From positions 180,001 through 212,000 of the forward strand of contig NZ_WUUQ01000001.1 in assembly GCF_009831105.1 (NCBI RefSeq): a stretch of 32,000 nt of DNA, given 5' to 3'. Made by a program: the position numbers and the translations under genes. The stretch comes from Copranaerobaculum intestinale (GTDB taxonomy: Bacteria; Bacillota_I; Bacilli_A; Erysipelotrichales; Erysipelotrichaceae). The first letter of the stretch is position 1; each line of letters starts with the position of its first letter. Below, in pieces: positions 5,112-5,354 of the stretch. The notes beneath the pieces are model-generated. The model did no database searches, was not told the DNA's origin, and was given only the letters and a program-made list of their open reading frames with translations.

Positions 5112-5354
5112 TTAACCTTTCATGAAAATCAGAATCAGGGCGATGATCAGAGCGTAAATACCCGTGGTTTCGGCAAGTGCGATACCCAGTACCATGATGG
5201 AACGGATCTTACCGGCCGCATCCGGATTTCTTCCCACGGATTCCGCACCCTTACTTGCGGCAATACCCTGTCCAATACCAGGACCTAAACCAGCGATCAT
5301 TGCGATACCAGCACCCAACAGTGCCATACCCTGTACAAAAGAATCGTTAAACAT
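5112..5354 (-). CDS. atpE: Fo ATP synthase c subunit (Na+-binding signature present)
   Basis: 80 aa helical hairpin. It contains GPGIGQG in helix 1, the loop RNPD, and [14 protein letters not shown] in helix 2. Confidence 0.95.

Follow-up and report, generated by a model that had tools for sequence, protein, structure and literature searches.

The analyses presented here make it probable that the F1Fo ATP synthase of Copranaerobaculum intestinale is a canonical Na+-binding enzyme whose ion site is a trait of its lineage, and that the decarboxylase genes encoded beside it form an accessory block at the glyA/upp site that is transcribed separately. Within the window (the whole stretch of 32,000 nucleotides that was analysed, to which positions refer unless another locus is named), the c subunit, AtpE, carries every defining feature of a Na+ F-type c subunit that can be tested in a sequence, and the homomeric c-ring that it would form most likely binds Na+ rather than H+.

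The c subunit and its predicted Na+ site

The atpE gene (5112..5354, minus strand; assigned from its ORF, profile matches, PDB alignment and multiple sequence alignment) encodes an 80 aa F-type c subunit and has a ribosome-binding site, AAGGAGG, about 8 nt upstream of its ATG. The product scores 69 bits against PF00137 and 66.4 bits against TIGR01260 (cut-off 43.95), which identifies it as a single-hairpin F-type c subunit. By residue count, helix 1 contains G24-P-G-I-G-Q29-G and helix 2 contains L60-A-E62-T63-T64-G-I-Y67, and the numbering of Q29, L60, A61, E62, T63, T64 and Y67 given in the initial annotation is correct. The Na+ ligand set, Q29, L60 (through its backbone), E62, T63, T64 and Y67, is complete. 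According to a published rule, Na+ specificity goes with [E/Q] in helix 1 and E[STQ][STQ]xxY in helix 2 (bioRxiv 10.64898/2026.10.01.756066, section 2.3); AtpE conforms to this rule in full, Q29 standing in gapless alignment opposite Q32 of 1YCE, E32 of 3ZK1 and Q29 of 4BEM_A, and helix 2 reading E62-T63-T64-G65-I66-Y67. In the rings of Fusobacterium nucleatum and Ilyobacter tartaricus, E/Q32, E65, S66 and the carbonyl of V63 bind the ion together with a water molecule held by T67 and A64, while Y70 hydrogen-bonds E65 (PMC3692424). The Acetobacterium woodii and E. limosum enzymes, which have the AtpE-type motif, are strictly Na+-dependent (PMC7793690).

AtpE was compared with all PDB chains by phmmer and placed in a formal gapless multiple sequence alignment that included H+-type sequences, namely one c subunit from the Clostridiaceae and the second F-type c paralogues found in two Erysipelotrichaceae genomes. 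The four top PDB matches are the four Na+ F-type rotor proteins, with E values from 1e-22 to 5e-43: A. woodii c1 (5.5e-43, over two hairpins), A. woodii c2/3 (1.1e-24), F. nucleatum (4.5e-23) and I. tartaricus (2.2e-22). H+ rings rank lower, the best being that of the spinach chloroplast (6.6e-14), with Bacillus PS3 at 1.1e-5. All four alignments with Na+ rings are gapless over 73-75 residues, and the identity of AtpE to the solved rings in these gapless alignments exceeds 50%. The c11 ring of I. tartaricus and Propionigenium modestum (1YCE, 2WGM) agrees at all ligand positions at an offset of +3, the pairs in 1YCE being Q29=Q32, L60=V63, A61=A64, E62=E65, T63=S66, T64=T67 and Y67=Y70. The c11 ring of F. 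nucleatum (3ZK1), also at offset +3, has the same fold and ligand positions, with E32 standing where AtpE has Q. The closest known protein, A. woodii c2/3 (4BEM_A), aligns at offset 0 with the same ligands Q29, E62, T63, T64 and Y67, the segments GPGIGQG and AETTGIY being identical.

The gapless alignments to 1YCE, 3ZK1 and 4BEM thus bear out the earlier claim that every Na+-coordinating position is matched, and in the formal alignment with both Na+ and H+ rings neither the Gln nor the Thr is offset. The reading of T63 as a conservative replacement of S66 also stands and can be put more strongly, since Thr occurs at this position in a proven Na+ ring (4BEM). The chloroplast H+ ring keeps the Q and the Y but has A-L at positions E+1 and E+2, which marks the polar pair after the Glu as the discriminating feature; in the H+-type members of the alignment, position 29 is Ile and position 63 is Ala. 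Across the 59 sequences of the family that share 69% identity or more with AtpE, residues E62, T63 and Y67 are invariant, T64 is found in 58, and position 29 holds Q (55 sequences) or E (4 sequences), so that the motif of AtpE is not due to chance. As a separate observation, the F-type c subunit of Clostridioides difficile (L006-L009) reads GIGQG...AESSAIY and conforms to the full Na+ rule.

Two other rotor types were considered and rejected. An N-ATPase is argued against by scores of 41.6 bits against TIGR03322 (cut-off 130.85) and 106.6 against TIGR03306 (cut-off 302.1), and by a canonical gene order with a delta subunit in place of the N-ATPase order atpDCQRBEFAG. As for an F/V hybrid rotor of the A. 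woodii type, PF00137 has two matches in the genome, AtpE and a V/A-type K subunit, and neither is a fused c1. Since there is a single F-type c gene beside the one K subunit gene, the ring would be homomeric.

The atp operon and its upstream neighbours

The operon has the canonical F-type order atpZ-atpI-atpB-atpE-atpF-atpH-atpA-atpG-atpD-atpC, all genes lying on the minus strand. The Fo a subunit gene atpB (5383..6093; profile and PDB comparison) encodes a protein of 236 aa that retains the conserved stator Arg within ...LRLFGN...; its nearest named relatives are in Longicatena species (63-66% identity), and the PDB comparison for this subunit returned H+-type a subunits and no Na+-type stator. 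The stretch 1..5074 encodes atpF-atpH-atpA-atpG-atpD-atpC (b, delta, alpha, gamma, beta, epsilon), the epsilon gene being cut by the window edge. Upstream of atpB, the presence of atpI (6097..6468) and of a gene for an atpZ-like small membrane protein (6465..6653), both noted earlier, is upheld by matches to PF03899 and PF09527, respectively. The use of AtpI as a clue to assembly of a Na+-type ring is another matter: AtpI is also found in H+ operons and, not being specific to Na+ enzymes, does not discriminate. What stands of this clue is that AtpI/UncI aids c-ring assembly in P. modestum, as cited in a passage of PMC4383579.

The first gene of the transcription unit is upp (6653..7273, minus strand), whose stop overlaps the start of atpZ and which is preceded by the ribosome-binding site GAAGGAG. 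A promoter read from the sequence, TTGTAT, 17 nt and TATAAT with TGT just 5' of TATAAT (7313..7341, minus strand), lies ahead of it, and the same upp-atp promoter is conserved, on the same kind of reading, in the sister-genus genome G035. A hairpin, AAAGCCAC-TTT-GTGGCTTT (7397..7415, minus strand), follows the stop codon of the preceding regulator gene and may be a weak terminator; at the same place G035 has a clear intrinsic terminator, in which seven consecutive T come after a stem of 8 bp. In a generic terminator scan the counts were not above those of shuffled sequence. Judged from this junction, upp-atp is its own transcription unit, separate from the decarboxylase block. Co-transcription of that block with atp was considered and appears unlikely because of the upp-atp promoter and the hairpin between the units, and no genetic or regulatory coupling of the pump to the synthase was found, the synthase genes having their own promoter beyond a hairpin or, in G035, a terminator.

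The Na+-pumping biotin acyl-CoA decarboxylase block (9456..15405, minus strand; profile matches and 6IVA alignment) encodes a Na+-translocating decarboxylase beta subunit (9456-10610; TIGR01109, 487.6 bits) and, each assigned by a profile match, a biotin carrier (10627-11049), an OadG-like subunit (11013-11351), a MatC-type dicarboxylate carrier (11369-12607), an mmdA-like carboxyltransferase (alpha; 12632-14173) and a family III CoA-transferase (14197-15405), all on the minus strand. The last gene of the block specifies a PRD/Mga-type regulator (HTH_11, Mga, PRD, EIIA_2; 7427..9412, minus strand); it lies between the decarboxylase genes and upp, and accompanies the block both in G035 and in a third genome, G118 (44% and 38% identity, respectively). 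Aligned with Salmonella OadB (6IVA), the beta subunit conserves D203, Y229, N373, G377, S382 and R389, which we take to be the Na+-path residues defined by OadB mutagenesis. The decarboxylase, placed 3 kb away by the initial annotation, is indeed a real neighbour, its beta gene lying 2.8 kb from the first atp gene, though 4.1 kb from the c gene. Considering the MatC-type carrier and the family III CoA-transferase in the block, its substrate is probably malonate or another dicarboxylate.

The whole block (PRD regulator, decarboxylase, MatC carrier, CoA-transferase, birA and bioY) was found only in this genome (G000), G035 and G118, directly upstream of upp-atp in all three (L146, G035:C4:1158000-1177000; L147, G118:C2:532000-551000). 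It has diverged in step with the housekeeping genes on its flanks (G035: beta 90%, AtpD 86%; G118: beta 85%, AtpD 82%); G118 has a c subunit of the other motif class and an a subunit only 35% identical. The presence of the block at one site in three genera fits co-inheritance, or exchange via the conserved flanks, and not repeated selection for adjacency; the three occurrences are not independent events. In Longicatena the tsaC-rpiB-glyA-upp-atp backbone is intact without the block. The family holds 19 other OAD_beta loci, with beta subunits 46-73% identical to that of the block; among them a matching carboxyltransferase occurs only in G102, and a MatC carrier or CoA-transferase in none. We therefore rejected the idea that decarboxylase loci generally lie beside atp, because none of these 19 is near atp and they are different systems.

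The motif and the Na+ pumps across the family

The survey covered 120 Erysipelotrichaceae genomes, and an F-type c gene was found in 119. The pattern [Q/E]...E[S/T]...Y is present in every primary c subunit (119/119), and no genome has an H+-type primary copy. The full motif occurs in 62/119, while the remaining 57/119 lack only the E+2 residue (ETC, ETA or ETV). An OAD_beta gene above cut-off is carried by 22/120 genomes, leaving 97/119 without any; by motif class, OAD_beta is found in 9/62 genomes with the full motif and 13/57 without the E+2 ligand. A link between motif and decarboxylase was accordingly rejected, there being no preferential co-occurrence with OAD_beta over the 119 genomes. 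As the motif is family-wide, with or without a decarboxylase, adjacency is not evidence for a circuit, and the predicted Na+ site has come down with the Erysipelotrichaceae lineage and is not an adaptation to the adjacent decarboxylase.

Rnf-type genes are found in 102/120 of the genomes, and Rnf is a far commoner candidate Na+ pump in the family than the decarboxylase. Of the genomes surveyed, 13 have neither Rnf nor OAD_beta and yet keep the Na+ ligands, the motif being complete in 8 and one residue short in 5; in these the enzyme could only hydrolyse ATP or use another source of energy.

Several variants were seen along the way. In the 57 genomes that lack the E+2 Thr it is replaced most commonly by Cys, otherwise by Ala or Val (for example L081-L133: ETCAIY, ETAAIY, ETVAIY). 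In the literature, c subunits with one ligand missing are treated as possibly promiscuous between Na+ and H+, and we know of no study of Cys at the E+2 position. A helix-1 Glu, as in F. nucleatum, gives GIGEG...SETTGIY in L061, L065, L066 and L069 (G080, G031, G107 and G023), and all of the 15 sister-family loci read (L180-L194) have GIGEG...[S/T]ETVA[I/L]Y. Second c genes are of two kinds, one H+-type, with Ile at the Gln position and E-A-T (L134, L135, L136 and L143; G018, G027, G105 and G063), the other divergent, M...IET(A/V) (L137 and L142; G003 and G085), perhaps from a second F-type or an N-type operon. Locus L104 (G013:C97:12170-12830) has two tandem c genes whose products differ, over 71 aligned residues, by a single Glu-to-Lys change in the segment next to the loop.

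Other ion-translocating systems in the genome

The assembly (2.30 Mb, 98.9% complete) also contains a complete V/A-type ATPase operon (G000:C4:66923-75526; L168:3924-12527). The K subunit encoded there (L168:7244-7690) contains ...LGEGVAIY... and lacks a Q/E in helix 1, and its closest solved relative is the H+ V/A rotor subunit of Thermus thermophilus. This V/A-ATPase looks H+-type, and the motif EGVAIY and the lack of a helix-1 Q/E led us to reject it as a second Na+ enzyme. The K ORF, of 148 aa, has an N-terminal extension of about 60 aa that may reflect a mis-set start codon.

Rnf is encoded by rnfCDGEA and a short rnfB (G000:C3:922990-927687; L167:2491-7188). RnfB is unusually short (102 aa), consisting of a membrane anchor and the PF04060 Fe-S domain with no ferredoxin-like 4Fe-4S domains, which makes the function of this Rnf and its use of ions uncertain. 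Two features of the locus may be recorded here: a terminator and then a GNAT gene follow on the 3' side of rnfB, and rnfA is separated from rnfB by a small ORF for a Cys-rich membrane protein (L167:~6694-6865). The genome further encodes one CPA-family exchanger and one AGCS Na+/alanine symporter. A genome search found no membrane pyrophosphatase, PF00361 (Nuo/Mrp), cytochrome bd, SNF or SSF gene, and no respiratory pump among the families searched. Since no other primary pump was found, the F1Fo enzyme would be energised by Rnf or by the genome's single biotin decarboxylase, or else must run backwards.

Discussion

We suggest that the F1Fo enzyme of C. intestinale would work as follows. By analogy with the homologous structures, Na+ would sit between two neighbouring hairpins, co-ordinated by the O-epsilon atoms of Q29 and E62, the O-gamma of T63, the backbone carbonyl of L60 and one water molecule, with T64 and the A61 carbonyl holding the water and Y67 locking E62; the stator Arg would release the ion at the a/c interface. 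Eleven hairpins per ring are probable, since the glycine motif of AtpE (10 residues) matches those of the I. tartaricus and F. nucleatum c11 rings, and a c11 ring would pass about 3.7 Na+ for each ATP made. The Na+ that Rnf exports, joined by that from the decarboxylase when its substrate is available, would re-enter through the a/c interface and turn the c11 ring, driving ATP synthesis. The enzyme would be reversible, making ATP under a sodium-motive force and expelling Na+ by ATP hydrolysis when no pump runs. Acting alongside the CPA exchanger and the H+-type V/A-ATPase, it may allow Na+ and H+ gradients to be interconverted.

This enzyme class, its motif and the decarboxylase-to-synthase Na+ cycle have been in the textbooks ever since P. 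modestum, I. tartaricus, A. woodii and F. nucleatum were studied. The decarboxylase-to-Na+-F1Fo cycle of P. modestum and F. nucleatum is the closest known system; in F. nucleatum, the paradigm, a decarboxylase-made sodium-motive force feeds F1Fo directly (PMC3692424). I. tartaricus and P. modestum, with their methylmalonyl-CoA decarboxylase Na+ cycle, likewise pair a Na+ F1Fo with a biotin-dependent acyl-CoA decarboxylase that pumps Na+, and have AtpI, but they have S66 where AtpE has T, and the decarboxylase operon of C. intestinale differs in its MatC-type carrier and family III CoA-transferase. F. nucleatum has a two-carboxylate motif, with E32 in place of Q29, a variant that is found in other genera of the family and throughout the sister family. 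The A. woodii enzyme is also paired with Rnf as a Na+ pump, but its hybrid ring contains a fused double-hairpin c1 with one dead site, whereas that of C. intestinale would be homomeric, and A. woodii is an acetogen and C. intestinale a gut fermenter. Enterococcus hirae, too, has two rotary ATPases per cell that apparently use different ions, an H+ F-type and a Na+ V-type; in C. intestinale the assignment looks reversed, with a Na+-like F-type and an H+-like V/A-type enzyme. Nothing on a Na+ ATP synthase in Erysipelotrichaceae or Copranaerobaculum, biochemistry included, was found in the literature searched.

Three other readings have to be weighed against a canonical Na+ F1Fo with a separately transcribed accessory block. 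It is possible, though we do not favour it, that the enzyme serves this fermenter mainly as an ATP-driven Na+ extrusion pump, the Na+ pumps and the ATPase acting in parallel and forming no circuit. Such a role has reportedly been proposed for Clostridium paradoxum, and it is consistent with a genome in which no respiratory chain components were found and with the 13 family genomes that keep the Na+ ligands while having neither Rnf nor OAD_beta. However, C. intestinale has Rnf and a decarboxylase, so that a sodium-motive force is possible without ATP; pumping could fall to the V/A-type enzyme, the other rotary ATPase of the cell; and the F-type enzymes of A. woodii and F. nucleatum, with such a motif, synthesise ATP (PMC3692424, PMC7793690).

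The initial annotation had proposed that the locus encodes both halves of a decarboxylation-driven Na+ cycle. Its components hold up, given a Na+-type c subunit and intact residues in the beta subunit; its reliance on adjacency does not, in view of the family-wide motif and the separate promoter. A circuit with the neighbouring decarboxylase is plausible physiologically, yet the genomic evidence does not support it. In its strict form, that of a dedicated, co-evolved and co-regulated pair as in P. modestum and F. nucleatum, the proposal would explain the adjacency, but we regard it as unlikely. It can draw on two halves that look functional by sequence, on the single orientation of all genes from the CoA-transferase gene through atpC, on the identical block directly upstream of upp-atp in G035 and G118, and on block proteins whose divergence tracks that of housekeeping genes. 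These last occurrences share one site and are not independent, however, and a dedicated pair accords poorly with a Na+ motif that extends to 97 genomes without any OAD_beta, with 19 further OAD_beta loci of different types located away from atp, with a Longicatena backbone that is intact where the block is missing, and with a conserved promoter for upp-atp behind a hairpin here and a strong terminator in G035.

To our knowledge all c-rings are intrinsically H+-selective to some degree, and coupling depends on ambient Na+ and pH. That the ring, despite its motif, couples to H+ or is promiscuous in physiological conditions is nevertheless improbable, as the first shell of AtpE is complete and identical to that of A. 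woodii c2/3 and as Na+ in the gut, at tens of mM, outnumbers H+ more than 1e5-fold at neutral pH, even if the lack of the E+2 ligand in half of the family hints at tunable selectivity in the lineage and some near-complete-motif rings, for example that of Synechocystis, switch ions with pH (10.64898/2026.10.01.756066).

The canonical Na+ F1Fo that we prefer for C. intestinale can be set within a wider and more tentative scheme, which we would not press beyond a conjecture, in which the Erysipelotrichales as a whole run on sodium bioenergetics. Within it, a Na+ F1Fo may be universal, with Rnf as the main pump; clade-specific changes at E+2 (T, C, V, A) and in helix 1 (Q/E) may tune Na+/H+ selectivity; an H+-type V/A-ATPase may convert between the ion currencies; and the dicarboxylate decarboxylase island may have stayed beside atp in three genera because it feeds the same Na+ circuit. 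The Erysipelotrichales are a lineage prominent in the gut, and the genome taxonomy used groups them with the Bacilli, which largely use H+.

The finding adds a member, and taxonomic range, to a known enzyme type and brings no new principle. If it is confirmed, a cultured human-gut isolate of the Erysipelotrichaceae, a family that is abundant and bioenergetically unstudied, would offer a convenient model for sodium-based energy conservation, combining Rnf, a compact decarboxylase pump and a Na+ F1Fo.
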